The notes: generated by a model not told the origin, from the sequence alone. DNA of 64,000 nt from a virus (IMGVR_UViG_3300009169_000014:44741-108740), one strand, 5' to 3'. Shown: positions 14,501 to 63,436, counted from the first letter of the stretch. Program-made: numbers and translations.

Positions 14501-16346
14501 CCTTGTCGTTCGTCCCCGTGCGTACATCACCAGGCTCGAGCTCGATCTTCATGAGCAGGCCGTTGATGGTCTTCTGTCGTTTGACGGCGCCGCCACGCTT
14601 CTCGAACGAATTCTTCTCAATCCCAAAGTCTTCTGCGTGCTTCTTCCCAGTAGGGTCGATGTAGATGTACTGCCCGTCGACCTTCACAACCTTGCCTGCG
14701 ACGGGAGACGACGGGAGCTCCAGCATCGCGAGTGCCTTCTCCCAACTCGAGAAGACCTTGCCCGTCGCATCAGCGACACCCGACTGCACTAGGGGTGCTT
14801 CTCGGTGCACGAGCGGGAGCGCCTGCGTCATCGACTTGCCTCCCATGATGCCGCGGTTCCCCTGCACGGACTCCAAAAAGGGAACGAGGTTCGTGGCGGG
14901 AGAGTACAAGTCTGAAGCATCACTGATCTCGTGCGTAACCTCCGACCATGGAACGCGCTCCATCTTCCCGTACTTCATGACCGCGACGACCCCAAAGTGC
15001 TTCTGCCTCGGGAAGGCGACGACTGCCCGACTCATCCGCGCTGCGGACAGAAGCTCCGACTTACCGGTCTTGACGTCCCGCACCATGGAGTACAGGTTCC
15101 CCTTGGGGTCCCGGTGCGCGAACATCGAAGTACGGATGTCGATACCGGCGCGGAACGTCTCGGACGTTCGCACAGGATCAAGGATACCAAGGTGGCTCGA
15201 GTGAATCGCCCGAGCCTCGCCAGGGATTGCACGCTCGTTGGCGATGCCACCCTCGCCCAAGGAGGTCACCCGCACCGCGTGGTCAATGGCCTCCATCGGG
15301 TTGATGTGCGTTGGGATCGAGCTCAGCTGCGATCCTGTGAGGAAGCTTCGAATGCCCGCGGAAAAAGGAGAAGGCGGAAGAATGGTCCGGAGTTCCGTCT
15401 TGTGCGTGGCCCTCCCCTTCACCTTACTGGCGAGCGCCCGAGCATCCAGGGTGATGCGCTCTTTGATGAAGTCGTCGACCGAGTGGTACGTCTTGAACCG
15501 TAGAGCGTCTCGGTCGTCAGTGTCCTCGTTGTTCTTGTAGACGCTGAGGAGGCGCTTCGACGCCACCAAGAGAGACTGCGGAGTGACGCTGGAGAACTCG
15601 TGGCCCAGTGTCTCCTTGGTAACCTCAGGGTCCATCGCCGTAGCGGCGTAGGCTGTCCTGATGGCAGCGAGCTGCGACTCCGGGTCCTTTGCCATCCGCT
15701 TCGAAGGGTGCACCAGCTTCTCGTAGAGCTTCGACAGATTCTTGTCGTGCTTCCCTTCAAACGCAGACTCATTCTGCTTCGCAACGTCGGAGCCCCAGTG
15801 CGAAGAAATGTCCGTGTGTGGTACTCCCAGCTTCCGGAGTACTGAGTAAAGTGGAATGGACGTCGTGCCGTACTCGATGTACGGATGCCCCTGCGTCGGA
15901 TCCATCGACAGCCGGAAGTTGGACCCCTTCGACAAGTTGAAGGCGGCCTCCAGATCTTCGTTGCCGCGGCGACGGGTGTATACGCCCGGCTTCAGACGGA
16001 GTTGGTTAGAGACGTTGTACTCGTTGCCGTCCAAGATGAAGGTGTGCCGCCCCGTGAAGTAGGGCAGGTTAAGCAGAGTGAAGTTCTTTACCCGCTCGAG
16101 CTCCTTCCCGTCGGCCCCCCGGAGGATGACCGTCCCCTTCACAGGCTCAAAAAGAGACCCACCGCTGAGCAAAGCGCTCTTCTGATCGTGCGGACCGAAG
16201 TCCCTCTCGTGCACCTTGAGATCAACGACCTCGATTTTCTTGTCCCGAAGTGGAAGGGGAAAAGCTGTACGCAGCGCATCAAGCGCTTTCGAGCGGATTT
16301 GAATCCGCCGCGACTCGGGGTCGGTCATCACAGGCGTGAGCTGCAT
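11535..16346 (-). CDS. DNA-directed RNA polymerase, fused beta subunit plus beta-prime N-terminal portion (through the catalytic NADFDGD region)
   Basis: Beta motifs: MRVGDKLTGRHGNKGVVS (GDK…GRHGNKGV) and KAVGKMEFNALVAHNARNVLKE (GGQRFGEMEVWALEAYGAA). Beta-prime N-terminal motifs: WSHIELAEPMVNP (GHIELA.PV), VLPPIMRPIL…LYQSLMLHNRSL, and NADYDGD at 11797-11817, followed by 87 aa to the stop. The track ORF extends to 17171, but the first 275 aa are Arg-rich junk. The real start is proposed at the ATG at 16346 (MQLTPVMTDPESRRIQIRSK…). Confidence 0.85.
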   Translation of the reverse strand: MQLTPVMTDPESRRIQIRSKALDALRTAFPLPLRDKKIEVVDLKVHERDFGPHDQKSALLSGGSLFEPVKGTVILRGADGKELERVKNFTLLNLPYFTGRHTFILDGNEYNVSNQLRLKPGVYTRRRGNEDLEAAFNLSKGSNFRLSMDPTQGHPYIEYGTTSIPLYSVLRKLGVPHTDISSHWGSDVAKQNESAFEGKHDKNLSKLYEKLVHPSKRMAKDPESQLAAIRTAYAATAMDPEVTKETLGHEFSSVTPQSLLVASKRLLSVYKNNEDTDDRDALRFKTYHSVDDFIKERITLDARALASKVKGRATHKTELRTILPPSPFSAGIRSFLTGSQLSSIPTHINPMEAIDHAVRVTSLGEGGIANERAIPGEARAIHSSHLGILDPVRTSETFRAGIDIRTSMFAHRDPKGNLYSMVRDVKTGKSELLSAARMSRAVVAFPRQKHFGVVAVMKYGKMERVPWSEVTHEISDASDLYSPATNLVPFLESVQGNRGIMGGKSMTQALPLVHREAPLVQSGVADATGKVFSSWEKALAMLELPSSPVAGKVVKVDGQYIYIDPTGKKHAEDFGIEKNSFEKRGGAVKRQKTINGLLMKIELEPGDVRTGTNDKGEKWEKKMYVAYGHIPKTVGDDGETVDIYLKEEGTFDNVYIVHQRKKDGSHDEDKCMVGFDSKDAAKDAYEKHGPPWGYGSLTEYTWDEFKDDYLSERGREKAAAEKDLLRIPYEDNFPFASKTYLHHDLLVKPGDHVDANQRLADSNFTRDGAFALGRNMTIGYVPYYGMNSNDAVVISEGAADKLTSEHMYKEVLEVERDATLGREIHRQYYGPKYMADQYRKLDTNGVVRKGTKVMPHDLLIAGVTRGKLSASDMLLSNLKKTLVHPYRELVRTWDHDFEGEVMDVHVTDRRVVVTVRTKEPMRVGDKLTGRHGNKGVVSLIVPNHKMLQDEAGKPLDVLYTSAGVVSRINPAQILETCVAKVAKKMGKPIAVANFSGRDNVQWTKDLMKEHGVKDKETLFDPVSGKKIPNILVGPQYVLRLFKTTETNFAARGTGAYDVNQQPIKGGDEGAKAVGKMEFNALVAHNARNVLKETASIKSQKNDEFWKAVQLGLPLPPLKASFAYDKFIGMLHGAGVKVDTRGSLSTLMPLTDNDITRMSAGAVQNEKLVRAKDLAPERGGLFDPAVTGGPDGTRWSHIELAEPMVNPIFAEPARRLLGMASKDFDAYRFQSGGSALKQRLNGIDVKARLKEVRASIKSLNGVKLDDAVKQLKFLEALDKQNLRPGDAYVLSKMPVLPPIMRPILAGKSGSELVVGDSNYLYQSLMLHNRSLQTQVDKPVLPPDEHSKLRQNLFLAVGAAVGTHESDNPKLQKRNVKGLLEHLTGKTTPKSSFFQKKIMKRQQDISGRGTIAPDGSLGMDEIGLPEDMLWGMYGKFIIGRLIRRGFNAVRAKEMLDEKHPAARDAMMAELKERPVMVNRAPTLHRYGFVGANPVPVAGKTIRVNPFIEQGMNADYDGDTFQIHVPILPAAVAEVKGMTLSNLLFSDREQNSLMVAPRMEAMLGVHLATKAEGSVNGQTHKFKTKADAMAAYKRGEIGLHTKVEVG

Positions 16347-16430
16347 GTCCGTAAGTATAGCCCTGAAATTGGTATTAGTAGTTGAGCCCCACTGACGGGG
16401 CTTTGACGCAGTACCACGCGAGGGGAACAA

Positions 16431-17213
16431 ATGGCCAACAAAGTAGCGGGGAAGACGAAGAAAAAGAAGGTCGTAAAACGAGCGGCGCCTCCGATCCACA
16501 AGGAGGAGGCATCGTTCCTCATCGACGTCCGAGAGATTCCACCGGACAAAATCCTCCGCGCTTCGCTCGTCTGTGAAGTTGACGACCGAAAACGGTGGGA
16601 TGCGATGAGCGAGGGGATGGTGGCGAACCAGTTGCCGAGGATCGCCCGCATCGCAGCCACGCTGACCAACACCAAGGCGCGTTGCCACTTCTGCAACAAG
16701 CCGCAGGAACCGCTCTCCAAGGAGCGGATGTTTCATTTCAGCAGCGACTACAAGTTGTGCGAGTGCTTGATGGTTCTTCGCAAGCGCCCGTACGAGTACA
16801 TCCCGGGGTGGAGTCATCCTGAGAAGCTGAAGCAAATTCTCAGTCAAGTGGAAACCGGCGAGCTGCTTCCAGTGGCGCCGGTCTACCAAATCGTATGCCA
16901 CTGCGGAGAAGGCCCTGTCGTTGTTAACGCGGGACTGATCGCACAGAGCGTACTGAAGTTCGGAGCGCACGCGCGAAAGAGGCAATGTGATCGGTGCCAC
17001 TTGAAACACATGCGGGCGAAGGTCCGCCCCAATGCGCCGTTGCGTGCGCCCGTGTCGGAACTCATCGCTGTTCCTCAGGACGGGCCCGGTGGCAAGTTCA
17101 AGAGGAACCGCAAGAAGGGGCACCAGGGACCGCGGCAGGGGGCCGTGATCATCCCAGAGGGTAGCCTTCAACCTTTGACCGCGCTCGAGAAAGCGCCTGA
17201 GACACCTGCTTGA
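16431..17213 (+). CDS. Cys-rich (zinc-finger-like) basic protein, 260 aa
   Basis: A GAGGGGA Shine-Dalgarno lies 6 nt upstream of the ATG. The N-terminus is Lys-rich and there are multiple CxxC/CxC pairs (CHFCNK, CECLMVL, VCHCGEGP, RQCDRCHLKH). It is divergent from the RNAP gene. Confidence 0.5.
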   Translation: MANKVAGKTKKKKVVKRAAPPIHKEEASFLIDVREIPPDKILRASLVCEVDDRKRWDAMSEGMVANQLPRIARIAATLTNTKARCHFCNKPQEPLSKERMFHFSSDYKLCECLMVLRKRPYEYIPGWSHPEKLKQILSQVETGELLPVAPVYQIVCHCGEGPVVVNAGLIAQSVLKFGAHARKRQCDRCHLKHMRAKVRPNAPLRAPVSELIAVPQDGPGGKFKRNRKKGHQGPRQGAVIIPEGSLQPLTALEKAPETPA

Positions 17214-23915: not shown

Positions 23916-24872
23916 ATGGCTACCGCCGAGACACCCGTGTCATCTGAAGAGACCCCCGAAGCCGTCATCGCCGCCGTAGCACCGAAGGCGGCTTCCCCGC
24001 TGGCCACCAATCGCTTCGTGGAGCTGCCCGTCAAGGACATCGTCACCAAGGCGGGCGACAACATCCGCAGCGGGGAGCTTCCGGAAATCGAAGAGCTCGC
24101 CAAGAGCATCAAGGCTGAAGGGCTCGTGGAGCCCATCGTCGTCACCATGTCAGAGACGCCGGGGAAGTACACCGTCGTCGCCGGACACCGACGCCTCACC
24201 GCGGTACGCAGCTTGGAGTTGGCGACCATCCCCGCGATGATCGTCGACGCTGACGTGAACCGTCGCATCAAGCTGGCGCTCATCGAGAACATCCAGCGCA
24301 AGGACATGGCCCCGTTGGACAAGGCCAAGGCGTTCGCGAAGCTCATCAAGAACACCGGGCTCGAGCAGCAGCAGGTGGCGGAGGCCATCGGCATGGCGCC
24401 GGGCTACGTCTCGCAGTACCTCGCTCTGCTGGAACTGCCGGAGTCCGCTCTCAGCGCCCTGCGCGACGGAGAGCTGTCGTTCACGCAGGCACGGGCGCTG
24501 TGCCGCCTCCTGCCCAACACCAAGGCCATCGACGACCTGGTGTTCGAAGCGAGCGATCTGACGGTCGCGGCGATGGAGGCAAAGATCGCCCACATCCTCG
24601 GAACCACCGAGGCCGCGGCGGAGGAAGAAGAGGAAGAGGAGGACGGGGAGGCCAAGCCCAAGAAGAAGAAGGCGGCGAAACCCGCTCCGTCGGAGAAGGC
24701 CATCGAGTACTACGTCGACGCCGAATTCCACCCTCTCAAGAAGGATGACATCCGCGAGCTGATGGTCAGCTACAAGCGAAAAGAGGTCAACGCCGACACC
24801 GCGAAGAAGCGGGAGGAGTACCGGCTGATCCTCAAGGGGATCACCCTCGCGGCTGACCTGCGGCTGAAGTAG
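23916..24872 (+). CDS. ParB/Sulfiredoxin-like N-terminal domain protein (ParB-like nuclease or partition protein)
   Basis: …VEPIVVTMSETPGKYTVVAGHRRLTAV… carries the GxRR ParB box. The HTH-like segment is …GLEQQQVAEAIGMAPGYVSQYLALLELP. The C-terminus has an acidic Glu run and a KKKK tail. Confidence 0.7.
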   Translation: MATAETPVSSEETPEAVIAAVAPKAASPLATNRFVELPVKDIVTKAGDNIRSGELPEIEELAKSIKAEGLVEPIVVTMSETPGKYTVVAGHRRLTAVRSLELATIPAMIVDADVNRRIKLALIENIQRKDMAPLDKAKAFAKLIKNTGLEQQQVAEAIGMAPGYVSQYLALLELPESALSALRDGELSFTQARALCRLLPNTKAIDDLVFEASDLTVAAMEAKIAHILGTTEAAAEEEEEEEDGEAKPKKKKAAKPAPSEKAIEYYVDAEFHPLKKDDIRELMVSYKRKEVNADTAKKREEYRLILKGITLAADLRLK

Positions 24873-25706
24873 CTACTCCGCGAAAACGTCCCTGGTGGCT
24901 GATACGTGATTGGCCACCAGGTACATTTTCAACTGCGCCATCGTATTTTTCTTGATCTGCCGTACCCGCTCAGAGGATAGGTCCAAGCGGTTCGAAATTT
25001 GTCGGAGGTTCTTAGGATCCTCCCGTGCTCCGAAGTACGCCAGCACGATGTACTTGTCTCGCTCCCGTAGGGCGAGCTCATCCAGGGCCTGCCGCAGAAG
25101 TGTAAAGCCGTATGTGTTCACGAAGTCCCGCTCAAGGACATCGTCGCTGTGCCCAGCCGCGTCGATGGACTCCACGGTGTCCAGCGTCACATGAGGAGCT
25201 TCAACGTCCGTCCCACTACCGTGCTTTCGCTGAGCGCGCAGGGCCTTCTGCTTGTGCGCTGGGACACGAATGATCCCCTGACTGTCGAGCTCTTCCAGAA
25301 TCTTCTCTCGGACCCACCAAGCGGCGTACGTCAAAAACTTGGTGTTTCGGGAGGAGTCAAAACGATCCGCGGCGACAAGCAGTCCGATGTTACCGGCGGA
25401 GATGAGAGTAGTAAGAACGTCGTTGTCGAAGTTGGGCCCCTTCGTACGGTAGGCGTACTCTTTGGCGACCTTCACGACGAAACGAAGAGCGCCGGAGATG
25501 AGACGGTCACGGGCCTTAAAGTTGCGAGGAGCCTTGCACTTGGCGCAATGCGTGGCTGAAGACCCAAGGGCGTATGACGCACGGCACGAGGGGCAGGTAC
25601 GGTAGCTCTTGACGAGTTCCTGCTCTTCCTTCTGGGGAATGAACACGTTACCGCGTAAATCGGTGAAGTAGGCCGCGATGACACGGTCGTTATCGGTCGA
25701 GCTCAT
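24873..25706 (-). CDS. Sigma-70 family RNA polymerase sigma factor (regions 2 and 4) with zinc-ribbon insertion
   Basis: Region 2-like: VVKVAKEYAYRTKGPNFDNDVLTTLISAGNIGLLVAADRFDSSRNTKFLTYAAWWVREKI. Region 4 HTH: LSSERVRQIKKNTMAQLK. The N-terminal CPSCRA…CAKCK is a Zn-ribbon-like insertion. It is the only minus-strand gene within the + strand block. Confidence 0.7.
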   Translation of the reverse strand: MSSTDNDRVIAAYFTDLRGNVFIPQKEEQELVKSYRTCPSCRASYALGSSATHCAKCKAPRNFKARDRLISGALRFVVKVAKEYAYRTKGPNFDNDVLTTLISAGNIGLLVAADRFDSSRNTKFLTYAAWWVREKILEELDSQGIIRVPAHKQKALRAQRKHGSGTDVEAPHVTLDTVESIDAAGHSDDVLERDFVNTYGFTLLRQALDELALRERDKYIVLAYFGAREDPKNLRQISNRLDLSSERVRQIKKNTMAQLKMYLVANHVSATRDVFAE

Positions 25707-31524: not shown

Positions 31525-31529
31525 ACGCT

Positions 31530-32320
31530 TCAAAAAGATCTTGCACCGGTACCTATCCGGCGTCTCCGTAGTGGAGACATTTCCCTCCCGGTGGTCTCCT
31601 ACAGCCTAGCTGAACGGAGACCAGGATGTCCTCGAGGGAGACGTCGTCGATGAGCTGAGGGTGGTTTCGTTATGCAGCGCCATCGCCGAGCTCTTCAGAC
31701 ATGTTGGAACTCAGAAGATCTGCTTTACCTTTCCTGCACCGGTACCTATCCGGCGTCTCCGTAGTGGAGACATTAACCCGTCCGGTCGGCGCGCAGCCTA
31801 GCTGCTTTGCCGACACCGAGGGTCATCATGAACGCGGCGCCGTCGTCGAGCTCCTCCTTCATCTCGAACACCCCAGTCCTGGACCAGGCTCATCGATAGA
31901 ACACAGAGGAAAAAACGTTGTGAACTCTTGCTCCGGTACCTACCCGGCGTCTCCGTAGTGGAGACAATGAGGCCGTGGGTGATACGCAGAGCCTAGCTCT
32001 CGCTACACCCAGGATGTTTTCGTACGGCCGTGCTTCGACGAGGTCCTCCTCGAAGATGTTCGCCGCGGCCGCCTCGAGCTGCTGCAGATGATAAAACAAA
32101 GAAGAGTTCTGTAGAACCTGGTGATTCGATCAGGTGCTGTACGCACCGACCGCGTAGTGCGGTCTTTTGCTCCAAAGCTACCCTCGAGATATTTCCCTGG
32201 GGTGTGAGGAAATATCATCACAGGAGTCACCACGTGCCGCAGGTTCGGATCAGAGGTGATCCTCACCTACGCGCTAAGGAGTCACCACCATCGTGCCGCG
32301 GCCTCCGGAGCCTAGCTCCT
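31530..32320. repeat. Non-coding repeat region: three roughly 193-bp-periodic modules, each with a GATCT box, a conserved 38-nt box carrying the hairpin GTCTCC-N5-GGAGAC, and a downstream AGCCTAGCT box. A second repeat family AGGAGTCACCAC…CGTGCCGC occurs 3 times
   Basis: 38-nt boxes at 31542-31579, 31735-31772 and 31931-31966 (tgcaccggtacctaYccggcgtctccgtagtggagaca). GCCTAGCT at 31604, 31795, 31991 and 32310. AGGAGTCAC at about 32222, 32277 and 32357. The region lies between the convergent DnaQ and terminase genes. Confidence 0.6.
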
Positions 32321-32367
32321 GCTTCTAGTCGGCCGCGAGCTGAAGCCAAGCTTCTTAGGAGTCACTA

Positions 32368-33984
32368 TCAGGCGTAAAACTTCAAGTCGTTGAGGACAAG
32401 CTTGTGCGCGAACCAGCCAAATAGCTGCGCGTGCAAGCAGTCATCGGGAAGCTGTGGGCTGTGGCGCCACACCTTTTTGCCGGCGAGGGTGACCTCTTCG
32501 TAGATGTTGAGGATGTCCTTGATAGGCTCCCGCATCTCTTCACGCGGGGGATAGATGACAGCGCCCCGCTTGAGGTACATGAGAAAGTTGTCGATGAGCG
32601 TAGTGCGGTCGGCGAGGTACCGGTCAAGTCCGTTGTGCTTGATCGGTTGCCCCAGCGCACCGTACTGAACCATGTGCACGCGGTGATGCCCGAGACGCTC
32701 ACGCAGTGTTGCGTTGGGCAGGGCGCCTTCACCAGCGTCACCGATGACCATGGCCACAGAGTACTGCTGGCAAATCTTGGCGATGTCCTCGACGTCCGTG
32801 ACGGCGTTGTTGCCAGGGTAGATGCGGTAGTACAGCGTCCGCAGCTTCTGCTGCCCCGGGACAAAGCCCCAGATCCACAGCACGGTGCGGCTCACCCCAG
32901 AGGTCCCCCCGCCTGACCAGTCGACGCCAGCGACGGTGAGGCTGCAGCCGTTCATGTTCGTATTGGGAGTGGGGGAGATGGACGGACCAACACAGAGGGC
33001 CTCAAGCTCCTCCAAGGAGATGAGACGACGACCGATGGCGTCAGAGACACCCAGCACCTCGTTGCGGAACTTCGCAGACGAGAACATGTCGTGGTCGCGA
33101 AGGATGTCGTTCCAACGGTCCTGGGCGTCCTTCACGGCGTTAGGCTTCTCCGGAGTGTTTTTTACGCACGACGGAATGTTCAATGGCATGATCAGCTGAG
33201 GAATGTGGAACCCCTTCACGGAATGCCGTCCCGTGTCCGGGTCCACCTTCTTCATGTCGATCCACTGCCCCGTTCGGGGGTTCAACACGTGCCCGCAGTT
33301 GAGGCAGATGGGGCCGTGCTTACCCAGGGACTTCTCTGAGACGACGAAATTGTACTTGCTGCAGCCCTCGCACTTCATCACCCACTCGCTCTGAGACGAC
33401 TTGTCCCAGAGGTACTGGATGCTGGCTTCCATCGTCTTCGGCGTGCCTGCGTAGGTCTCAAACCGGTAGTTCGAGTTCTTCATGCAGGCGTTGATGACAG
33501 GGACCACCGAGTCGTACAGCATGTCCTGAAACTCATCGTAGCTGACGCGGTCAGCGGAAAAGCCTCGAGCGCGGTCGGCGTCGTCACAGGCGTAGGTGAA
33601 CGCGTTCTCAGAGCCGTTGGTGTACGACCGGTGGAGCACGCGGTCCGCGTGTTCCGGGGACTGGAAGTACTTCTTCACGATGGGGGAGTAGGAGAGCGTT
33701 TTCCCGACGCGCGTATTAGAGAAGATCAGCGTCTGTTCTTTGGACGGAGAGACGTAGTACTCACGGAAGAACGGGATGGCCACCGACTCCGCGATGATGA
33801 AGTTCGCTAAGGAGGTGCTCTTTGCCACCTGCCGCCCACACATCAGGAGGGTGGACTTGTAGCGCCCGTTGTAGATCTGTCGGTACATCGGATAGTCGTT
33901 CAAACTGAACGGCGCGCCGTCCAACCAAAGCAACCGCTCAGCGACATCCGACAGACGTTTCGTAGCAATGTTCAGGTCCATCAA
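32368..33984 (-). CDS. Terminase large subunit
   Basis: N-terminal ATPase with Walker A (MCGRQVAKSTSLANF). C-terminal nuclease-like region (…VMKCEGCSKYNFV…, …MVIGDAGEGA…). The size of 538 aa is typical. Confidence 0.85.
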   Translation of the reverse strand: MMDLNIATKRLSDVAERLLWLDGAPFSLNDYPMYRQIYNGRYKSTLLMCGRQVAKSTSLANFIIAESVAIPFFREYYVSPSKEQTLIFSNTRVGKTLSYSPIVKKYFQSPEHADRVLHRSYTNGSENAFTYACDDADRARGFSADRVSYDEFQDMLYDSVVPVINACMKNSNYRFETYAGTPKTMEASIQYLWDKSSQSEWVMKCEGCSKYNFVVSEKSLGKHGPICLNCGHVLNPRTGQWIDMKKVDPDTGRHSVKGFHIPQLIMPLNIPSCVKNTPEKPNAVKDAQDRWNDILRDHDMFSSAKFRNEVLGVSDAIGRRLISLEELEALCVGPSISPTPNTNMNGCSLTVAGVDWSGGGTSGVSRTVLWIWGFVPGQQKLRTLYYRIYPGNNAVTDVEDIAKICQQYSVAMVIGDAGEGALPNATLRERLGHHRVHMVQYGALGQPIKHNGLDRYLADRTTLIDNFLMYLKRGAVIYPPREEMREPIKDILNIYEEVTLAGKKVWRHSPQLPDDCLHAQLFGWFAHKLVLNDLKFYA

Positions 33985-34010: not shown

Positions 34011-35285
34011 ATGAGCAACGCGGCACAGGACAAAGTCGTACAGGGAGAAGCGTACTGGGATCGCTACTCGATTCCCAGGATGACGCTCCACGAGGCGATG
34101 TGGCAAATCGACCTCAGCCTCGAGCAGGAGCAGACCCGTGGCGTCTGGTGCCTCATCTCCGAAGCCGGAGAGGGGAAGTCCCAGGGGATTCACCAGCTGG
34201 CCCGGAAGCACGGAAGGCGTGTCGTCGACATTCGCACGTCGCAGTTCTCCATGATTGGCGCCGGTGTTCCGCAGCGCGCTGATGAGACGGGGCACTTCAA
34301 AATCGCCATTCCGAATGACTACCCGAAGCCGGGGGAGAAGTGTGTACTCATCTTCGATGAAATCAACCAGGGCCAGCAGCATGCGATTGCGCTCTTCTTC
34401 AAGTTTCTCGAGGACCGCGGGATCTACGACTACACCCTACCCGATGACTGCGTGATTGTCGCGCTGATGAATCCGTCGACGGCGGGATACAACGTCACGA
34501 AGATCGAGACCAACTCCGCGTTCAACCGCCGCCTGATGAAGGCATACGTGTACAACACGTTCTCCGACTGGAAGAAGCACGCGCAAACCAACGATTTCCA
34601 CTTCACGGACGGACTCGAGAAGCCGTGCCACCCGATGGTGCTGCGGCTGCTCACGGCGACTCCGGCGATGCTGTACACCGCCAAGGACCGCGACGGGAAC
34701 AAGCAGTTCGCCTGCCCTGCTACCTGGCAGACGGTGTCGCTGTCGCTCTACAACCTCGAGGCGGCCAAGGTCGACCTCACCAGCGAGAAGGCGGAGAACC
34801 GAATCGCGGCGTCCATCAACACGGTGAACGCCAGGACCCTCGCCGAGTTCATCAAGAACAACGAGATCCTCATCGGGCCGGAGGAGGTGCTCTTCAAGTA
34901 CAAGGAGAAGAGCAAGCTCCGTGAGCGCGTGCTGGCCCTCCAGAAGGAAGCAGGGGGCACCTACACCCAGCTGGTGCAGGACGTCGCCCAGCACATCTTC
35001 CGGGAGCGCCCGGATGCTGAGCTCATCGCACCTCAGCTCGTGCGGTTCTGGCATGACATGCCGGTGGAGCAGGCGCAGCCGTTCTACCAGATGCTTGACG
35101 CAGCGTGTCAGGCGCACGGAGGGATTGGGGAGCCGAAGAACCTGGCCTACATGCAGGCATTGACGATTGCAAATCGTCAATATCCGCAGTGGAAGGAGAT
35201 CAACGACCGCATCAACCGCATCCACGACGAGATGGAGAAGAAGGTCCACGGACGGGGTCAGACCAAGGATCCGATGGAGGCTTAG
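34011..35285 (+). CDS. MoxR-like AAA+ ATPase
   Basis: Walker A-like ISEAGEGKSQGIHQLARK, Walker B VLIFDEINQGQQ, and sensor region. It starts 27 bp from the divergent terminase start. A vWA partner lies downstream at 38065. Confidence 0.7.
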   Translation: MSNAAQDKVVQGEAYWDRYSIPRMTLHEAMWQIDLSLEQEQTRGVWCLISEAGEGKSQGIHQLARKHGRRVVDIRTSQFSMIGAGVPQRADETGHFKIAIPNDYPKPGEKCVLIFDEINQGQQHAIALFFKFLEDRGIYDYTLPDDCVIVALMNPSTAGYNVTKIETNSAFNRRLMKAYVYNTFSDWKKHAQTNDFHFTDGLEKPCHPMVLRLLTATPAMLYTAKDRDGNKQFACPATWQTVSLSLYNLEAAKVDLTSEKAENRIAASINTVNARTLAEFIKNNEILIGPEEVLFKYKEKSKLRERVLALQKEAGGTYTQLVQDVAQHIFRERPDAELIAPQLVRFWHDMPVEQAQPFYQMLDAACQAHGGIGEPKNLAYMQALTIANRQYPQWKEINDRINRIHDEMEKKVHGRGQTKDPMEA

Positions 35286-36007
35286 AGCTGCTCAAGCTCT
35301 CCACGCAGACGCTTCGTCTTCTCAGAGACGTACACCCAAGACGCAGCCAGCTTCTCCAACTGTGCCCCCAAGGGGGAGTCGTCGAACTTCTTCTGTTCGA
35401 GCTTCTCCTTGGGGAGCGCGGTCCATGCCTTCTCGGTCTCCCCGAGAAGGAGGGCTGCGCTCTTCGGCAGTCTTGCTTTTAGCTCGTCCGCAACGACGTG
35501 AAGGCCCGCGGGCGGGTAGACGAACCCTTCGTCGAAGAGGGCGACAGCGATGTACGCCTGCACGCAGTCATCGAACTCCGGCCTCGTACTCTCGCCGTCC
35601 GAGAGTGCGAACAGGAGCTCAGCCTCAAACGCGGCCCAAGCCATCGGTCCGGCGTCGCAGTGCGGCACCTCTTCGGGCTGCACGTGGCCGTTGCTCAGCG
35701 CGTGGACGGTGGCGCCGAAGACGCGGTAGTCCCAGTAGAAGCTCGGGGTCATCGCCAGAGCAATGGCCGCCATCAGCTTGTCGCGGTTCGAAGCGCAAGG
35801 GTCCAGCTCCAGCCACAAGGTCTCGGGTTCGTATGAAACGAAGGTCGGGCCCAGCAGGTGGCGGGCTGCCACGAAAACTGCAGTGGCGGTGGCGTCGCAA
35901 TCCTGCAGCACTGCCTTGGCGTGATCCTTCTGAGCGTGAGTGGGCGAGCGGAAAAACGCCGCATAGGCCTCCTTCACGACGAGACGCTGTTGATCGGAGA
36001 GGGTCAC
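35282..36007 (-). CDS. Hypothetical protein (241 aa)
   Basis: Minus-strand ORF. The stop of the MoxR gene overlaps its stop, giving convergent ends. Confidence 0.45.
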   Translation of the reverse strand: MTLSDQQRLVVKEAYAAFFRSPTHAQKDHAKAVLQDCDATATAVFVAARHLLGPTFVSYEPETLWLELDPCASNRDKLMAAIALAMTPSFYWDYRVFGATVHALSNGHVQPEEVPHCDAGPMAWAAFEAELLFALSDGESTRPEFDDCVQAYIAVALFDEGFVYPPAGLHVVADELKARLPKSAALLLGETEKAWTALPKEKLEQKKFDDSPLGAQLEKLAASWVYVSEKTKRLRGELEQL

Positions 36008-36618
36008 AAAGAGCCTGCGGCACGGAGGTGACGAACAGCGCGAAGACGCTTCTCATGCTGGTCCAGCGACGGCTCTCCCCCTGGAGCGATGGGGGCGATG
36101 GGCTCAGGTTTCGGACCCACAAGGTCTTTGAGGCGATCCCCGGTGAGGAGGGACTCTGGCTTGTTCGGACGCTTGAGGCCCTGGTCGTACTTCGCTTGGA
36201 CGTCTCGAGGAAGAATCGTGAACTTGTCTAGACCCCAACCCGGCGAAGGTCCAAGTACGTCGTTCACCCTCTTTTGCGCGGTGAGACGCTTGTCACGGCT
36301 GCGCTCGTTGACGTCCTTCCACGCCCCAGTAGGCATGAGAGGTTTGCTCAGTGTGGCGACTGAGAGCGGCAGCGTGAACAGATTCACCCCTAAGTTGAAC
36401 AGGCGCTCAAGGCCGTGCATCTCCTTCAGCTTGGGCGGAAGCGCCTCAGCCCTGGCCCCTTGGCGAGCAGAGAATTCCTGCGCGCTCTGCGCAGCAGCAC
36501 CGGGACCGAGACGCGTCATCCTGGAGGCAAGACCGCCTTGAAGTTTCTTGTTGATCCAGTCATAAGAGACGGCGAACTTCTCGAAGGCGTCTCGCTGTCC
36601 TAGCCCGTAGAAGTTCAT
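36004..36618 (-). CDS. Hypothetical protein (204 aa), MNFYxLGxRD-family paralogue A
   Basis: N-terminus MNFYGLGQRDAFEKFAVSYDWINKKLQ. Start/stop overlap with its neighbours. Confidence 0.5.
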   Translation of the reverse strand: MNFYGLGQRDAFEKFAVSYDWINKKLQGGLASRMTRLGPGAAAQSAQEFSARQGARAEALPPKLKEMHGLERLFNLGVNLFTLPLSVATLSKPLMPTGAWKDVNERSRDKRLTAQKRVNDVLGPSPGWGLDKFTILPRDVQAKYDQGLKRPNKPESLLTGDRLKDLVGPKPEPIAPIAPGGEPSLDQHEKRLRAVRHLRAAGSL

Positions 36619-37010
36619 CGCGCTTTGGTATTGATGAGAGAAGGAAACTCTTTGGCTACGTTCACAGCGGCACTGGTAGCCGCGGAGCGGTTCGCAGTCA
36701 TACGCTGTAGGTTCTGCAGCCGCTCGACGTCCGGGGGCTGTTGTCTCACCGCCGCCATGGTGCGCCGCAAGAGACGCATAGACGCGGGGGGCTGTCGATC
36801 AACAAAGGTTGTCACCCTTTTAGCGTTGTTCATTCCCTCTACGCCGTGTTCAAGCCCGCCTTCCAGGCCGCCACCCCCTCGGTAGGGCGCTACTGCGATG
36901 GCCTGCTGAAGGAGATTTCGAGTGGCGTCGGTCGTATGACTCTTGATCCACTCAGGGCTAACGGCGAACTTCTCCAGAACATCCCGGGTACCCAACGCGT
37001 AGAAGTTCAT
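36615..37010 (-). CDS. Hypothetical protein (131 aa), MNFYxLGxRD-family paralogue B
   Basis: N-terminus MNFYALGTRDVLEKFAVSPEWIKSH. Tandem with paralogue A. Confidence 0.5.
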   Translation of the reverse strand: MNFYALGTRDVLEKFAVSPEWIKSHTTDATRNLLQQAIAVAPYRGGGGLEGGLEHGVEGMNNAKRVTTFVDRQPPASMRLLRRTMAAVRQQPPDVERLQNLQRMTANRSAATSAAVNVAKEFPSLINTKAR

Positions 37011-37028
37011 TACTTATTCTCCAATAAG

Positions 37029-38045
37029 TTAGCGACAGTGCGCCTTCAGCTGGAGCTTCAGATCCAGAGGAAGCGTGTCCACCACGGTGGCCAACTTCGA
37101 CTGGTCAACGACTCCGCCGGGGGCGATCTCGTCACCGAGCTCCTTGCCACCGAGGTCTTCCCAGAAAGACGCAGGGAGTTGTGCAAGCTTGGCGACTGTA
37201 ACGAACGTGCCGCCCAGGTCCACAGAGTTCCCTGCAAGTTTTTCGGTGTTGAACACCGTCCGCAGTGCGTCAGGCAGCTTGCGGTCGTAGTGCTTGTCGA
37301 GGCCCGACTGTGCGTCGAGCTCACCAATGGCCGACGCCACCTTGAGCAGGCCCGCGCGCTCTGAGAGCTCTTCCGGTCCTTTCCTCATGTGTGTGGCGAG
37401 GGTCTGGTAGGCCGTCTTGAACACGTCTCCCTCGGGGAACCGCGAAGCTCGTGCATCGAGCCACTGGGCCGCCAGCTTGGTGCTGGAAACCACGAGGCCA
37501 GACAGCTGGAGCACTTCAGGGCGGAGCTCCACCTTGAGCTCGTCCGCCCGCTTCACCAGGTTGGCGCAGGCGGTGGCGCGGTTCGCGAGGTCCAGCTTGG
37601 GGAGCTCTGCGACCAGGCGGTCCTGCGCCAGCTTCACCTGAGCTTCGGTGTGGAGGGGGAGGAACTTGAACTCGGGGAGGACGTACAGGTCGTCCGACGC
37701 CACCTTCTCAGCCAGCTCAGCGAAGGTGGTCTCCGGGACCTCGTACACCTCGAGAGCCTTCACGATGTTGCTGCGGACTTCCGCGGGAAGGACAGAGGCA
37801 ACCTTGCTGTACGCGTAGGACAGAGCGGCATGCTCTGGCGTGTGGATCGGGAACTTGCGTTCCGCGGGCCATGCGAAAGCCGAATCGGGCAAGGAGCGAG
37901 CCTCCTCAGGCTCCACAGCGGCCTGCTTCACGAAGTCCTCGAGGGCGGGCATCTTATTGACCTGCCGGTAGAGGGTGCCAAAAGCAGGGTCACTGAATTG
38001 ATCGACAGTCGGCATTTTGCCACCTCGAAAAGGGTACAGAACCAC
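37029..38045 (-). CDS. Hypothetical protein (338 aa)
   Basis: Minus-strand ORF preceded by a GAGG-type RBS. Globular composition. Confidence 0.5.
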   Translation of the reverse strand: MVLYPFRGGKMPTVDQFSDPAFGTLYRQVNKMPALEDFVKQAAVEPEEARSLPDSAFAWPAERKFPIHTPEHAALSYAYSKVASVLPAEVRSNIVKALEVYEVPETTFAELAEKVASDDLYVLPEFKFLPLHTEAQVKLAQDRLVAELPKLDLANRATACANLVKRADELKVELRPEVLQLSGLVVSSTKLAAQWLDARASRFPEGDVFKTAYQTLATHMRKGPEELSERAGLLKVASAIGELDAQSGLDKHYDRKLPDALRTVFNTEKLAGNSVDLGGTFVTVAKLAQLPASFWEDLGGKELGDEIAPGGVVDQSKLATVVDTLPLDLKLQLKAHCR

Positions 38046-38064
38046 TTGAGTATAGGAGAATCAC

Positions 38065-39705
38065 TTGAGCTCTCACAACGACGAGAATGAGCTCGCGAAG
38101 TCCCTGGTTTACTGGGTATCGCGACGCGGAGCAAACAACTACTGGGCCACGCTCATCAATGGCTGCGACAAGAAGTACACCAACGAAGACGGTACGATGT
38201 CGGTCCAGCTGGCGCCGAATTGGCGCTACCTACTGACCTGCCACCTGCCGTTCTTCGAGAAGTGCTCGCCGGAAATGCGCCTGTTGGTTCTGGTGCACGA
38301 GGCGGCGCACATCGCGCTGAATCACATCCCTCGCCTGTTCAAGCTGCTGGCGAACTGCACGGACCCGTTCGTGCGCAGGGCGATTCTAGCCACCTTCAAC
38401 TGGGCCGCGGACTTTGCAGCCAACGACGCCATCGTGCGGCTCGAGCCTGGATTCGAGAAGGCGCACAAGGCGTTCATGCACGTCGGCAAAAACGGAGAGA
38501 TGGTCAATGTCACCGAGGAAGAAATCGAGAAGCTCCCTGGTGAGTTTCCGTTCCTGCTGCCCGAGGAGTGGGGCTTCCCCAAGGGTCTCTCTATGGAGGA
38601 GTACTTCATCCTCATCCTGAAGGACCTGCCGAAGTTCAAGCAGAAGGTCGAGCGGATGATGGAGGACCTCAAGCGACAGCTGGAAGAGATGGGAAAGAAC
38701 GGAGAAGGCGAGCTTCCCTCGGAAGAGGAAGGCGACGTAATGGCTTCCCCGTTTGGCCGCGGGAAGAGTGGGCTGCCCAACAGCGTTCCGGGTCTTCCGG
38801 AGTCGTTGATCGGCCACGCCATCAATTCTCCTGAAATCTTCGACATGATGCAGAAGGCCTTCGACAAGATCTCCGGAAATTCGCACAAGCAGTGGAACGA
38901 GAAGGCTGAGGGGATGACGCCTGAAGAGGCCATCTCCGCTGGGTCGAAGATGAAGAAGCACGCCCAGCAGCTGGCTCGCTCTGCGAACGAGCGCGTCCAT
39001 CGGGACCGCGGGTACATGTCGGGGAATGTTCAGCGCATCATCGACGCGCTGCTCGAGCCTGAGCAGCTCCCGTGGGACATGTTCCTGCGTGACATCATCC
39101 AAGGCGCCATCACCGCCCGCGTGATGGAGGAGATGACCTCTCCCAACTTGTCGCTCATCAACGAGGACTACCTCGAGCCCTGGCCCGGCCAGACGCTGGA
39201 GTTCGGCTTCAACATCACCTGGATGACGGACACGTCTGGGTCGATGGGTGACGACGAGTACGCCCGTGCCTGCGCCTGCATCAACTCACTGCTGGCCCAG
39301 AACAAGTCGGTCTTCGTGACCTACTGCGAGTGCGACGCGGCCATGCAGAAAGAAGTGAAGGTCACCAACGTCGAGCCTCCGACTGAGGAGTACATCAAGG
39401 AGCTCCAGAACCGCCGTGGCCATGGGGGCACGGTCTACACGCCGTTCTTCAAGCGAGTCGCCGGGGCGGACAGCCCGGGGGATTGGGTGCGCAATGCGCC
39501 CAGGCTCGAGGACAAGCACCCGAAGCCGGACCTGATGGTCATCTGCACCGACGGCGGTGTGGGCCTGATGGGCGAGTGCTTCCCGCAGTACCAGCCTGAG
39601 TGCCCCATCATCTGGCTGCTGATGCCTGGGTGTCACCCCTGCGAGGGCATGGACAACATCGCACCGAATCGGTTGATCGAGATGTTCAAGATGAAGGAGG
39701 AGTAA
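38065..39705 (+). CDS. Putative zinc metallopeptidase (HExxH) fused to a C-terminal von Willebrand factor A domain
   Basis: LVLVHEAAHIALNHIP carries HExxH. The vWA MIDAS motif is ITWMTDTSGSMGDDEY (DxSxS), with …TDGGVGLMG downstream. It pairs with the MoxR ATPase at 34011. Confidence 0.65.
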   Translation: MSSHNDENELAKSLVYWVSRRGANNYWATLINGCDKKYTNEDGTMSVQLAPNWRYLLTCHLPFFEKCSPEMRLLVLVHEAAHIALNHIPRLFKLLANCTDPFVRRAILATFNWAADFAANDAIVRLEPGFEKAHKAFMHVGKNGEMVNVTEEEIEKLPGEFPFLLPEEWGFPKGLSMEEYFILILKDLPKFKQKVERMMEDLKRQLEEMGKNGEGELPSEEEGDVMASPFGRGKSGLPNSVPGLPESLIGHAINSPEIFDMMQKAFDKISGNSHKQWNEKAEGMTPEEAISAGSKMKKHAQQLARSANERVHRDRGYMSGNVQRIIDALLEPEQLPWDMFLRDIIQGAITARVMEEMTSPNLSLINEDYLEPWPGQTLEFGFNITWMTDTSGSMGDDEYARACACINSLLAQNKSVFVTYCECDAAMQKEVKVTNVEPPTEEYIKELQNRRGHGGTVYTPFFKRVAGADSPGDWVRNAPRLEDKHPKPDLMVICTDGGVGLMGECFPQYQPECPIIWLLMPGCHPCEGMDNIAPNRLIEMFKMKEE

Positions 39706-40745: not shown

Positions 40746-41372
40746 ATGGACCTGTATTGCCTCCGTGTCCGGCGGGAAACCGCCGGCAAGCAGTTCCCGT
40801 TTGACCGGGTGTACCTCGCCAAGAACGGCGAGCACGGCGTCTTCAAGAAGCTGTTCCGCTACGCCTTGGTGTTGCCCGTCGAGAGCAGCCTCAAGAACAT
40901 GCTGCTTGACTACGTGAAGATCGACGCAGGCGAGACGCACGAGCATGACCGACGTGACGACGCCCCTCCGCCCAGCGACACGGAGTGGAAGGAAGCGCTC
41001 GAGACTGGGGACTGGGTGATGTGCGTGCCCATCCTGGCGAAGTACGTGGCGTCGAACATGCCGCGGTATCTCACAGCGGCGGGGGCCTACCGAGCTCCCA
41101 CCAACGGTAAAACCAAGCGCCGACGCCGAGGGGCTTCAATCATGCCGGGGATCAAAGAACCGTTCCCCACCCTGACGTACTTACAGACGCCCGAGCAGAA
41201 CATCCGGCCTGTCTGCATCGCCTGCCCGAACTTCATCAACCACCAGAACGGTCACTGCCGCCTGGGTGAAGAGATCTGCTACACCTCTCTCTCCCTCGGG
41301 ATGCACAACCACTTCAAAGAAGGGCTGGAGGTTCCTGAACCTTCGGCGCTCCCTGCTTTCGAGGAAGACTGA
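40746..41372 (+). CDS. Hypothetical protein (208 aa), translationally coupled to the reverse transcriptase
   Basis: Its stop overlaps the RT start (TGATG at 41370-41374). A Cys/His cluster lies near the C-terminus (CIACPNFINHQNGHC). Confidence 0.5.
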   Translation: MDLYCLRVRRETAGKQFPFDRVYLAKNGEHGVFKKLFRYALVLPVESSLKNMLLDYVKIDAGETHEHDRRDDAPPPSDTEWKEALETGDWVMCVPILAKYVASNMPRYLTAAGAYRAPTNGKTKRRRRGASIMPGIKEPFPTLTYLQTPEQNIRPVCIACPNFINHQNGHCRLGEEICYTSLSLGMHNHFKEGLEVPEPSALPAFEED

Positions 41373-42568
41373 TGCCCACCTACAAGCAGAACTTCCTCGA
41401 GAAGATCGAGGTCAAACCGCTCCTGGTGAACTCGCCCGACGTACCGCTGATCGTCGATGACTGGACGCTGGCCTTCCGGCTGGGGTTCACTGGCAAGACG
41501 TTCTGGTACATCGTGGACAACCGCGCCAAGATGTACAACGAGTTCATGATCAAGAAGAAGTCTGGCGGCCTTCGCCGGACATTCGACCCGAACGGGCTCA
41601 TCCGCATCTTTCAGCAGCAGATGCGCGCTCGTATCCTGCTACCCCTGTGCTCCAAGCTCGGGGCGCATGTCTCGGCCTACCAGGTGGGGAAGAGCACGCT
41701 GGACGCCGCTCAGGCGCACCTGCGTGACTGCCCCATCTGTGTGGAGACCACCAAGCCGGGGACCAACCCGGTGAAGCACGACTGCCCGCGGCGGGGCGTG
41801 AAGTTCAAGATGGACCTCAAGGACTTCTTCTTGTCGACCCGCCGGTCATGGATCCGCCAGTACTTCCACGAGGTCGTTGGCTACAACCACTACGCCAGCA
41901 GTCTGTTGGGCCAGCTGCTCACGACCGACTACCGCGACGAGAAGAAGAGGAAGCGGACAGGCGTTCCTCCGGGAGCGCTCACCGCCGGGGACATCTGCAA
42001 CCTGGTGTGCGACTGGAAGATTGACCAGCCGCTGTTGAAGGCTCTGCCAAACGGGTGGCGCTACACCCGGTACGCAGACGACTTGTACTTCAGCAGTGAT
42101 ACGCCCCTGCCCACAGAAGAGGTGAACAAGGTCATCCAGCTGGCGACCGACATCATCAAGGGCTCAGGCTACCGAGTAAACTGGAAGAAGCTCCAGGTCC
42201 AGCACTGGCGGCGGCCTCAGCGAGTGCTGGGGATCAACATCAACCGCAAGCTGAACATCCCAGCGAACGAGTATCGCAAGCTGCACATGCTGCTGTACAA
42301 GGCCAATCAGCACGGCTTCGAGGCGCAAGTGAAGTACGCCAAGAAGGACGATGTCGTGAAGCTGCATGCGTGGATCGTCGGCAAGCTGAACTACTTCACC
42401 CGGTTCGCGCCGGAGAAGACAGAGAAGCTGCGGAAGCTCTACCAGCGGGCGAAGGAAACCCACAAGACTTCGGACATCACCATGTTCGAGTTCGTAAACG
42501 GGGAACTGACGAGCGAGCCCATCGATCTCGAGAACCAGGATCCGCCGTTCGAGGTGACAGGCACATGA
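41372..42568 (+). CDS. Reverse transcriptase (retron/DGR/Abi-like RT domain, motifs 1-7)
   Basis: Motif 1/2: IKKKSGGLRRTFDP. Motif 2a: AHVSAYQVGKSTLDAAQAH. Motif 3: FKMDLKDFFLS. Motif 4 variant: GVPPGALTAGDICNLV. Motif 5: YTRYADDLYF (YADD at 42071-42082). Motif 6/7: RVLGININ. A Cys insertion DCPICVETT…HDCPRRG lies between motifs 2 and 3. Confidence 0.8.
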   Translation: MPTYKQNFLEKIEVKPLLVNSPDVPLIVDDWTLAFRLGFTGKTFWYIVDNRAKMYNEFMIKKKSGGLRRTFDPNGLIRIFQQQMRARILLPLCSKLGAHVSAYQVGKSTLDAAQAHLRDCPICVETTKPGTNPVKHDCPRRGVKFKMDLKDFFLSTRRSWIRQYFHEVVGYNHYASSLLGQLLTTDYRDEKKRKRTGVPPGALTAGDICNLVCDWKIDQPLLKALPNGWRYTRYADDLYFSSDTPLPTEEVNKVIQLATDIIKGSGYRVNWKKLQVQHWRRPQRVLGININRKLNIPANEYRKLHMLLYKANQHGFEAQVKYAKKDDVVKLHAWIVGKLNYFTRFAPEKTEKLRKLYQRAKETHKTSDITMFEFVNGELTSEPIDLENQDPPFEVTGT

Positions 42569-61694: not shown

Positions 61695-62013
61695 CTACTT
61701 CGAGCTCGCAACGGTCGGAGGCGCGGCTGCAGCAGCTTGCTGCGCTTTAATCAGATCCGTCAGAACCTTACCGCGCGTTTGGGCCACGTCGGCGTGGTGC
61801 CTCGGTGTCCCGCGGTAGGCGATGACGCTCGGAGCTTGGGGTGCCTGCGGCGCAGGCATCTGGTGCATCACTCCCGCCGTAGCGAAGGGGATCGCCAAGA
61901 GCGTGCGGCGCATGTACTTCGCCACTTCCGGTCCCAGAAAATCGAGCGCAGCTTCTTTGTCGAAGCCGAAAGCCAGCGCTGCGTCACACTGTCCGATTGC
62001 GTAGTTACTCATC
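61695..62013 (-). CDS. Hypothetical protein (about 105 aa)
   Basis: ATG at 62013 (MSNYAIGQCDAALAFGFDKEAALDFLGPEV…). The upstream extension in the track ORF is Arg-rich. Confidence 0.4.
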
Positions 62014-63021: not shown

Positions 63022-63436
63022 CCAGGAGAACCCCTGCGACCACGCCGACCGCGATGCCTACGCCAGCGCCGATGGCCCACGCAGGGAAGGGCCCAGGCTT
63101 CGCCTCAGCCTTGTTGGCTCGAGTCGTCTCCTTGACCAGCATCTCGTTCAGCTTGGTGTTGCTCTGCTGGAGTGTGAGCGTGGCACTCTTCTGCGCCTCG
63201 AGAGCCTCCTGCAGGCTCGTCGTCGCCTTCTTGAGATCAACGCTCATGCCCGTCGTGAGCTTCACCTGCTGAAGCAGCAGATGCAGGTCGGCGTCGAGCT
63301 CCAGAAGCTTCTTCGCTTGGTCGAAGTCGTAGCACGCTTTCTCGCCGCACATCGACCACTTGGGGATGTACCTGAGCTCGTCGGCGAGAACCGAGCTGGG
63401 GAACACCAGGAGTAGCAGGAGGGCGGTCTTCTTCAC
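63002..63436 (-). CDS. Secreted/membrane protein with N-terminal signal peptide and C-terminal TM helix (144 aa). Possible lysis or spanin-type component
   Basis: MKKTALLLLLVFPSSVLA signal peptide. Coiled-coil middle region. C-terminal AWAIGAGVGIAVGVVAGVLLGVYVAK. Confidence 0.4.
   Translation of the reverse strand: MKKTALLLLLVFPSSVLADELRYIPKWSMCGEKACYDFDQAKKLLELDADLHLLLQQVKLTTGMSVDLKKATTSLQEALEAQKSATLTLQQSNTKLNEMLVKETTRANKAEAKPGPFPAWAIGAGVGIAVGVVAGVLLGVYVAK

Follow-up and report, generated by a model that had tools for sequence, protein, structure and literature searches.

A divergent AAA+ ATPase and peptidase-vWA protein module, split by opposite-strand genes, in a group of large uncultivated phages

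The window analysed here is a stretch of viral DNA of 64,000 nucleotides (IMGVR_UViG_3300009169_000014:44741-108740). Its positions 34011-39705 hold six genes: two plus-strand genes, one coding for an AAA+ ATPase and the other for a protein in which a putative metallopeptidase domain precedes a von Willebrand factor A (vWA) domain, flank four minus-strand genes. The products of the two flanking genes probably work as the paired subunits of a conserved machine; the module is that of gp24/gp25 of phage N4 and of the AAA_5 + DUF2201 operons of bacteria. The window pair is a divergent copy of this known and widespread module, with both genes apparently intact, and the pairing is not new. Nor is the fusion of peptidase and vWA domains, which is the norm and the defining architecture of the family and has already been described in N4-like and jumbo phages. 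New here are only the split arrangement of the pair and two recurrent orphan neighbours.

Domains and invariant residues of the two proteins

The peptidase-vWA protein matches two Pfam families in the order DUF2201_N ('putative metallopeptidase'), then DUF2201 ('VWA-like'), and passes the curated gathering threshold of both. The first match covers residues 63-350 (28.9 bits for a cut-off of 23.2, E = 1.1e-6) and the second residues 387-466 (30.4 bits for a cut-off of 26.4, E = 4.6e-7). The protein also matches PHROG 1314 (7e-30). One alignment brings together 29 sequences of 21-87% identity, among them gp084 of Bacillus phage BpSp and an N4 gp25-like protein. In it the residues H78, E79, H82, H87, D116, N120, and G316 of the N-terminal domain are invariant. 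So are D389, S391, G392, S393, T456, and D496 of the metal ion-dependent adhesion site (MIDAS), together with T495, G454, G455, D424, and W517. From its sequence, the N-terminal domain is a zincin-like putative peptidase of the HExxH kind.

In the AlphaFold model of the protein (pLDDT 79), the HExxH helix comes after a sheet of three strands. Beyond it, a linker at residues 210-242 breaks a long helical region, and the C-terminal domain is of the alpha/beta type. The linker, which is disordered, is a candidate site of autoprocessing. In Foldseek searches, the vWA domain best matches the MIDAS domain of Rea1/midasin (6qt8) and then integrin I domains; vWA domains of the calcium-channel alpha2delta protein are also found. 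Searched against the sequences of the PDB, a profile of the family finds vWFA domains and, at the HExxH helix, gives weak local matches to M48 peptidases (BepA). Single-sequence searches of the PDB with either the ATPase or the vWA protein gave chance matches only.

PHROG 1314 and some N4-like annotations carry the label 'HNH endonuclease'. Pfam gives no HNH-family match for the protein of the window, for the N4 gp25-like protein, or for that of BpSp, and all three consist of DUF2201_N and DUF2201. The label, as found on PHROG 1314 and on N4 gp25-like proteins (positions 5416-6648 of locus L005; orf20 of the Roseovarius phage), appears to be a propagated error.

The ATPase matches PHROG 1297 ('ATPase', 3.2e-36), and with tblastn it finds, at 22-28% identity, N4 gp24-like proteins, ATPases of PA5oct and Bacillus phage G, and cyanophage 'MoxR-like ATPases' (S-TIM5). 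Among 36 aligned members of the family, K56, E117, N154, R174, G85, and P87 are invariant, and G53, G55, and D116 are conserved in at least 90% of the sequences. Going by alignment position with AAA_5 proteins, N154 is the putative sensor 1 and R174 the putative Arg finger; this alignment has no invariant Arg after R174/R175. Pfam AAA_5 is matched by 26 of the 36 members and AAA_3 by 6. The family profile finds the AAA modules of midasin as its best match in the PDB (2e-20), followed by ClpB, RNF213, dynein, and McrB. As judged from these comparisons, the ATPase probably belongs to the AAA_5/midasin/MoxR clade and is not placed in the narrow MoxR (AAA_3) subfamily.

A sequence-only reading of the window had described the first gene as coding for a MoxR-type AAA+ ATPase and the last for its vWA partner carrying an N-terminal HExxH putative peptidase domain. 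Both descriptions agree with these results. 'MoxR-type' is right in the broad sense because of the PHROG 1297 match, the tblastn matches, the invariant residues, the AAA_5 members of the family, and the profile match to midasin. The HExxH, MIDAS, and Walker motifs that it quoted lie where the gene coordinates place them, and the alignments bear out their conservation: HExxH and MIDAS residues are invariant in the 29 vWA proteins, and the Walker residues K56 and E117 in the 36 ATPases.

Co-occurrence of the two genes

The sequence-only reading had proposed co-occurrence and synteny as checks. A relative of the vWA protein was found in 153 fetched loci, 87 of them viral and 66 cellular (bacterial genomes and metagenome-assembled genomes). 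An ATPase relative is present in 76 of the 87 viral loci, always on the strand of the vWA gene (upstream in 42 and downstream in 34); in all 11 viral loci without it the contig ends within 2 kb of the vWA gene. In the cellular loci, the ATPase gene is adjacent and co-directional in 63 of 66, the remaining 3 being truncated. All testable loci (76/76 viral, 63/63 cellular) have a same-strand ATPase partner, and synteny of the pair holds in all the relatives that were examined. In conclusion, the ATPase and vWA genes are obligate genomic partners, and in loci that permit the test one is essentially never without the other.

The cellular pairs belong to actinomycetes (Streptomyces and others), filamentous cyanobacteria, sulfur-oxidising Gammaproteobacteria, Clostridia, and further groups. 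Of the cellular homologues with full length, almost all have retained the HExxH motif, and a representative pair consists, by Pfam, of AAA_5 and DUF2201_N/DUF2201. The neighbours of these pairs are leucine-rich repeat (LRR), ankyrin, and pentapeptide-repeat proteins or SNF2 helicases.

Among phages, lists of the conserved N4-like genes have for a long time included gp24 (AAA ATPase) and gp25 (vWFA protein), without an assigned function. The roseophage gp25-like protein matches DUF2201_N (1e-17) and DUF2201 (2e-19), and its gene lies downstream of the gp24-like gene, with one small open reading frame (ORF) between them. In BpSp, gp083 and gp084 form a pair side by side, and the vWA domain has a weak VWA_CoxE match. 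The genome paper of 0305phi8-36 (2007) lists a two-subunit 'MoxR-type metalloprotein chaperonin' among the non-structural genes. Iyer, Anantharaman, Krishnan, Burroughs & Aravind (2021, Viruses 13:63) describe, in 'group 2.2' jumbo phages, MoxR with a vWA cochaperone that has an N-terminal metallopeptidase. Because of these precedents, the fusion that the sequence-only reading had highlighted, implying that it was unusual, is the defining architecture of a described family.

In the PA5oct locus (L006), the ATPase gene (3905-5020) and its vWA partner (7871-8707) are set apart by three small ORFs and a gene of 498 aa annotated as a putative homing endonuclease, which has weak matches to restriction endonuclease-like and Vsr-like Pfam families. 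This is another pair pushed apart by insertions.

Organization of the locus

The six genes, the terminase gene to their left, and the main sequence features of the two proteins are listed in Table 1. An independent gene caller run on the source contig gives the same set of proteins (537, 424, 241, 204, 131, 328, and 546 aa), including the four minus-strand genes that the sequence-only reading had placed between the pair. The G+C content at third codon positions is strongly raised in all frames of the locus genes, including the large terminase. Ribosome-binding sites are found 5' of the ATPase ATG (GAGGGGA), 5' of the TTG start of the vWA gene (AGGAGA), and also 5' of the ATG at 38015, where the ORF of 338 aa probably starts, giving a protein of 328 aa. 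The 241-aa gene and the ATPase gene are convergent, with an overlap of 4 bp. Scans of the region for Rfam families and tRNAs gave no match.

Table 1. Genes of the locus and sequence features of the ATPase and the peptidase-vWA protein (window coordinates)
Feature	Position	Strand	Details
Large terminase gene, gpA type (terL)	32368-33984	-	directly left of the ATPase gene
AAA+ ATPase gene	34011-35285	+	424 aa
Walker A GEGKS	34167-34181	+	within SEAGEGKS; K56
Walker B DE	34356-34361	+	within VLIFDE; E117
Putative sensor-1 N154	34470-34472	+	from alignment position
Putative Arg finger R174	34530-34532	+	from alignment position
Conserved orphan gene	35282-36007	-	241 aa
First MNFY gene	36004-36618	-	within the pair at 36004-37010
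Second MNFY gene	36615-37010	-	within the pair at 36004-37010
Conserved orphan gene	37029-38015/38045	-	328 aa from ATG 38015; 338-aa ORF if longer
Peptidase-vWA fusion gene	38065-39705	+	546 aa; TTG start
Predicted zincin-like domain, N-terminal	38251-39114	+	residues ~63-350, extent of the DUF2201_N match
HEAAHIALNH	38296-38325	+	HExxH motif
Acidic/Gly-rich linker	38692-38790	+	residues 210-242; low confidence in the model
vWA domain, C-terminal	39121-39702	+	complete MIDAS motif
MIDAS DTSGS (D389-x-S391-G-S393)	39229-39243	+	invariant columns
MIDAS T456	39430-39432	+	invariant column
MIDAS D496	39550-39552	+	invariant column

A split pair and two conserved orphan genes

The window falls within a group of uncultivated phages, the most complete contigs of which measure 168-197 kb. 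Their genes include a split multisubunit RNA polymerase, a family A DNA polymerase, primase/helicase, ribonucleotide reductase (RNR), and a retron-type reverse transcriptase (RT). In 20 related loci, with vWA proteins down to ~24% identity, one finds the same gene order: DNA polymerase, terL (-), ATPase (+), the 241-aa gene (-), the 328-aa gene (-), vWA (+), a 208-aa gene, and RT. In most other lineages examined, the pair is adjacent or has only small co-directional ORFs between its genes. The sequence-only reading had treated the four intervening genes as a block. The four genes are indeed present in the window, but only the 241-aa and 328-aa genes are conserved, the two others (the MNFY genes of Table 1) being sporadic.

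Because the whole block is collinear, the sandwiching of the two orphans alone is no proof of a functional link with the pair. More telling are two distant jumbo-phage contigs, L010 (183 kb) and L059 (107 kb), in which the ATPase and vWA genes are adjacent (with a 4-bp overlap in L010). Homologues of the 328-aa and 241-aa genes adjoin each other there in the same order, 4-5 kb downstream and on the opposite strand, and no other gene in common with the window neighbourhood is detectable. The 328-aa homologue is a related protein of 480 aa (profile E 6e-21). The 241-aa homologue measures 264 aa in L010 (hmmsearch 5e-7 over positions 39-238) and is matched at 8e-6 in L059.

Both orphans are acidic (pI 5.0 for the 241-aa protein and 5.3 for the 328-aa protein). 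Neither has a match in Pfam, PHROG, NCBIfam, PADLOC, or PDB, except for a sub-threshold DUF6582-like motif at the N-terminus of the 328-aa protein, and profile searches of both against PDB sequences are empty. The model of the 328-aa protein (pLDDT 84) is mostly helical and has no annotated structural match in BFVD or PDB. Its family comprises 2082 representative clusters at E<=1e-3, among 1.84 billion representatives searched, and these give no functional lead. A tblastn search with this protein against isolated phages gave no match, and no N4-like or cellular locus with either orphan was found among the fetched loci. One may tentatively propose that the ATPase, the peptidase-vWA protein, and the two orphans form a four-component system specific to uncultivated jumbo phages of this large group, in which the orphans serve as dedicated clients or cofactors of the putative protease, but we regard this as doubtful.

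The MNFY genes

The products of the two MNFY genes are small and very basic (204 aa with pI 10.1, and 131 aa with pI 10.6). The sequence-only reading had called them tandem paralogues. They do share an N-terminus, MNFYxLGxRDxxEKFAVSxxWI, with 16 of 22 residues identical over residues 1-22, and in DNA the repeat spans 68 nt with 71% identity. BLASTP shows no other similarity, and because the likeness is confined to these residues the genes are not full-length paralogues.

The two genes are absent in L001-L003, L008, L009, and other loci of the clade, in which the 241-aa and 328-aa genes abut. In the closest relative among the fetched loci (L004), an ORF of 78 aa with the same N-terminus is found at the same site. 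The MNFY genes look like a lineage-specific accessory set with a common leader, inserted between conserved genes. We considered them as part of the module and rejected this, as they are absent from nearly all relatives and have only the 22-residue leader in common.

Across 2.1 Mb, 4 copies of the motif are present, and 3 of these belong to the window. The same leader (MDFYSLGRGD...) is found on a Gly/Ala-rich protein of 326 aa at 62005-62985 (-), which has a weak glycine-zipper match. Upstream of its gene, at 63002-63436 (-), lies a gene for a protein of 144 aa with, as read from its sequence, an apparent N-terminal signal peptide and a C-terminal transmembrane segment. The genes at 62005-63436 may be a lysis or membrane cassette, and the MNFY-type leader may be a targeting or processing signal.

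Possible function of the module

As far as they can be checked, the two proteins have lost none of the residues for ATP binding and hydrolysis, for the MIDAS metal, or for the predicted zincin catalysis. By analogy with the behaviour of MoxR-vWA pairs, midasin, CoxD/E, and NorQ/D, one can outline how the module would work. The ATPase ring would spend ATP to remodel a client protein. The MIDAS metal site of the vWA domain would grip an acidic residue of the client and couple it to the ring, and the zincin domain fused to this adaptor would cut the client, or the adaptor itself. The outcome would be an ATP-dependent, adaptor-targeted chaperone-protease. We think it reasonably probable that the pair is such an ATP-driven, MIDAS-targeted chaperone-protease, and that its client is an intracellular protein complex of the phage or host, handled early or midway in infection, more probably than a protein of the virion.

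The genomic context bears on the nature of the client. In the window, the neighbourhood of the pair includes DNA polymerase, exonucleases, helicases, primase, and RNR. The N4-like pair lies between the RNAP2 genes and those of dCMP deaminase/thymidylate synthase, the BpSp pair adjoins gyrase B, and the pair of L010 adjoins RNA polymerase, an SNF2 helicase, and uracil-DNA glycosylase. The pair of 0305phi8-36, as mentioned, is listed with non-structural genes. A non-virion, intracellular client is favoured because five independent phage lineages thus place the pair with genes of replication, nucleotide metabolism, or transcription, and because the module is common in cells.

Several points weigh against a chaperone-protease with an intracellular client. 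The neighbourhood is weak evidence on timing, as terL directly adjoins the ATPase gene and gene order in jumbo phages is scrambled. The window ATPase itself matches no Pfam model at E<=0.01. We know of no DUF2201_N member with demonstrated peptidase activity and of no client for any member, and a literature search found no experimental report of proteolysis or of a client for any of them. Finally, for the same architecture in jumbo phages, Iyer et al. (2021) favour virion assembly accompanied by proteolytic processing, on the model of the tail-development proteins p618/p892 of Acidianus two-tailed virus.

On this last explanation, the module would be a chaperone and cochaperone for the assembly of heads or tails, and the fused peptidase would trim structural proteins during maturation. 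In the window and throughout the clade, terL is directly next to the ATPase gene; the record of the PA5oct ATPase bears the note 'ESI-MS/MS'; and the acidic, helical nature of the two orphans is compatible with scaffold-like proteins. However, the pairs of N4-like phages, BpSp, L010, and 0305phi8-36 lie in regions of replication or nucleotide metabolism and not in structural modules, and the cellular module is common in genomes without a phage context, such as those of Streptomyces and cyanobacteria. Unlike scaffolds, the 328-aa orphan is as well conserved as the DNA polymerase, and terL is the sole structural gene identified within ~10 kb on either side. We consider a role in virion assembly unlikely.

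The module could also serve against host defences or in host take-over, by capturing a host protein, such as part of an immune system, and cleaving or remodelling it. In a transposon screen, a MoxR ATPase gene of phage Bas54 is reported to be specifically needed against the predicted E. coli defence system DS-28, but the Bas54 protein may be of another subfamily and may lack a partner of the peptidase-vWA kind. The repeat proteins and SNF2 helicases beside the cellular homologues are contexts typical of conflict systems, and the placement of the phage pair is compatible with early or middle expression. Yet PADLOC matches neither the ATPase, the vWA protein, the orphans, and the MNFY proteins, nor the bacterial homologues. 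In addition, the module is conserved as a core gene pair across very divergent phages (in the N4-like core and in whole jumbo clades), whereas anti-defence genes tend to be sporadic. An anti-defence role thus seems quite unlikely. It and the protease or maturation role were both put forward in the sequence-only reading, and they are the same options as in the literature.

A last explanation is the activation of a phage or host metalloenzyme, such as the phage RNR, by insertion of a metal cofactor, in the manner of CoxD/CoxE, NorQ/NorD, CbbQ/CbbO, and CobS/CobT; the HExxH motif would then bind metal without cutting. The ATPase is of the AAA_5 kind, which is common to CbbQ, NorQ, and CobS. Further points in its favour are the weak VWA_CoxE match in BpSp, the large RNR gene in the window, and the name that the authors of the 0305phi8-36 genome gave to their pair. 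However, the catalytic Glu of HExxH is as invariant as the His ligands, a combination expected of an active hydrolase, and for this reason metal insertion seems the least likely of the explanations, indeed a highly improbable one. To our knowledge, the vWA partners known from metal insertion have no DUF2201_N-type domain, and there is no conserved linkage to a metalloenzyme gene across the lineages examined.

The AAA_5 + peptidase-vWA module is a core pair in N4-like phages, in several groups of jumbo phages, and in many bacteria, and the window adds to it a well-sampled and highly divergent clade. The finding in itself leaves existing knowledge unchanged. The alignments pin down the invariant residues that are the ones to mutate (H78, E79, H82, H87, D116, and N120; the MIDAS set; and K56, E117, N154, and R174), and the 241-aa and 328-aa orphans are two candidate partner proteins and possible clients. 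This would aid the design of substrate traps in a tractable relative such as N4.

Other genes and elements of the window

A retron-type RT is encoded at 41372-42568 (+), with matches to Pfam RVT_1 (7.6e-15) and PADLOC RT_XIII (1e-46); the matches to the NCBIfam retron models are below their cut-offs. It is flanked by genes at 40746-41372 (+) upstream and 42370/42565-43830 (+) downstream, and lies two genes after the vWA gene in all relatives of the clade, down to ~25% identity. Near the RT, no repeat of the kind found in diversity-generating retroelements (DGRs) and no intergenic space for a typical upstream noncoding RNA was seen. A conserved RT is unusual in a lytic-looking clade of jumbo phages. 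The possibility that the locus is a DGR-linked MoxR-vWA system was rejected because 30-50 kb contains no pair of template and variable repeats and because the RT is retron-like.

Two genes contain segments similar to the beta subunit of RNA polymerase. One (11535-17171, -) codes for a protein of 1878 aa that has several such segments and also a region matching families of minor head protein, virion structural protein, and endolysin; the other (8135-9934, -) codes for a beta-like protein of 599 aa. In L010, a gene for a fused beta/beta' protein of 2169 aa adjoins the AAA-vWA pair. The 1878-aa and 599-aa proteins suggest that the phage has a multisubunit RNA polymerase in split or fused form, which may be virion-associated. 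The replication region also has a sigma-factor-like gene (PHROG 351; 24873-25706, -) and a ParB-like gene (23916-24872, +), hinting at phage-directed control of transcription and at partition or nuclease functions.

Between an exonuclease gene and terL there is an ORF-poor gap (31525-32367), and the relatives also have a long gap here. At 31539-31968 it contains three near-identical elements of 43 nt, spaced by 193-194 nt, each with a GGCGTCTCC...GGAGAC hairpin. Their core of 37 nt has no further copy in the window, where 0 are expected by chance, and they have no Rfam or tRNA match. The gap could be the site of promoters or small RNAs, or of an origin or packaging signal.

Comparison with known systems

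The vWA-MoxR-VMAP ternary conflict systems described by Kaur, Burroughs, Iyer & Aravind (2020) have a MoxR-vWA core with further dedicated components. In some of them peptidase domains take the place of the effector, and some have reverse transcriptases close by. The window has no VMAP, iSTAND, or effector array; its orphans have no detectable relation to VMAP; and its RT is retron-like and free of DGR repeats.

Midasin (Rea1/Mdn1) is the best solved match both for the ATPase, through its AAA_5 modules, and for the vWA domain, through its MIDAS domain, and it is the paradigm of an AAA ring pulling on a MIDAS-held client. However, it is a single eukaryotic polypeptide of 5000 residues with six fused AAA modules, without a peptidase, and acts in ribosome biogenesis. 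The similarity with the window proteins is at the level of the family only.

Another viral pair, p618 (MoxR) and p892 (vWA) of Acidianus two-tailed virus, has an experimentally supported chaperone role in tail development; the virus is archaeal, though, and the pair has no peptidase domain. The likeness here is by description. It is also by description that the pair cited for the group 2.2 jumbo phages (ASV44729.1, ASV44728.2) is likened to that of the window: both have the same domain architecture and come from large phages. In contrast, the window clade consists of uncultivated, GC-rich contigs with the split arrangement, and the neighbourhoods examined here do not favour virion assembly.

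The bacterial and archaeal operons of AAA_5 and DUF2201_N-DUF2201 contain the same two families, adjacent and co-directional, with HExxH present. Their 'predicted metal-dependent peptidase' is what we take to be COG3864. They differ from the window in their neighbours, which are lineage-specific repeat proteins or SNF2 helicases, and in having no homologues of the 241-aa and 328-aa proteins.

The N4 gp24/gp25 pair (Schitoviridae) differs from that of the window in identity (~20-22%), in length (~395 and 410 aa, compared with 424 and 546 aa), and in arrangement, being co-directional with one small ORF between the genes, where the window has two conserved and two variable genes on the opposite strand. 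Nevertheless, the proteins of the two phages share PHROG 1297 and PHROG 1314, the roseophage gp24-like and gp25-like proteins align with those of the window with all catalytic and MIDAS residues kept, and the N4-like pair lies, as in the window, among genes of replication or nucleotide metabolism.

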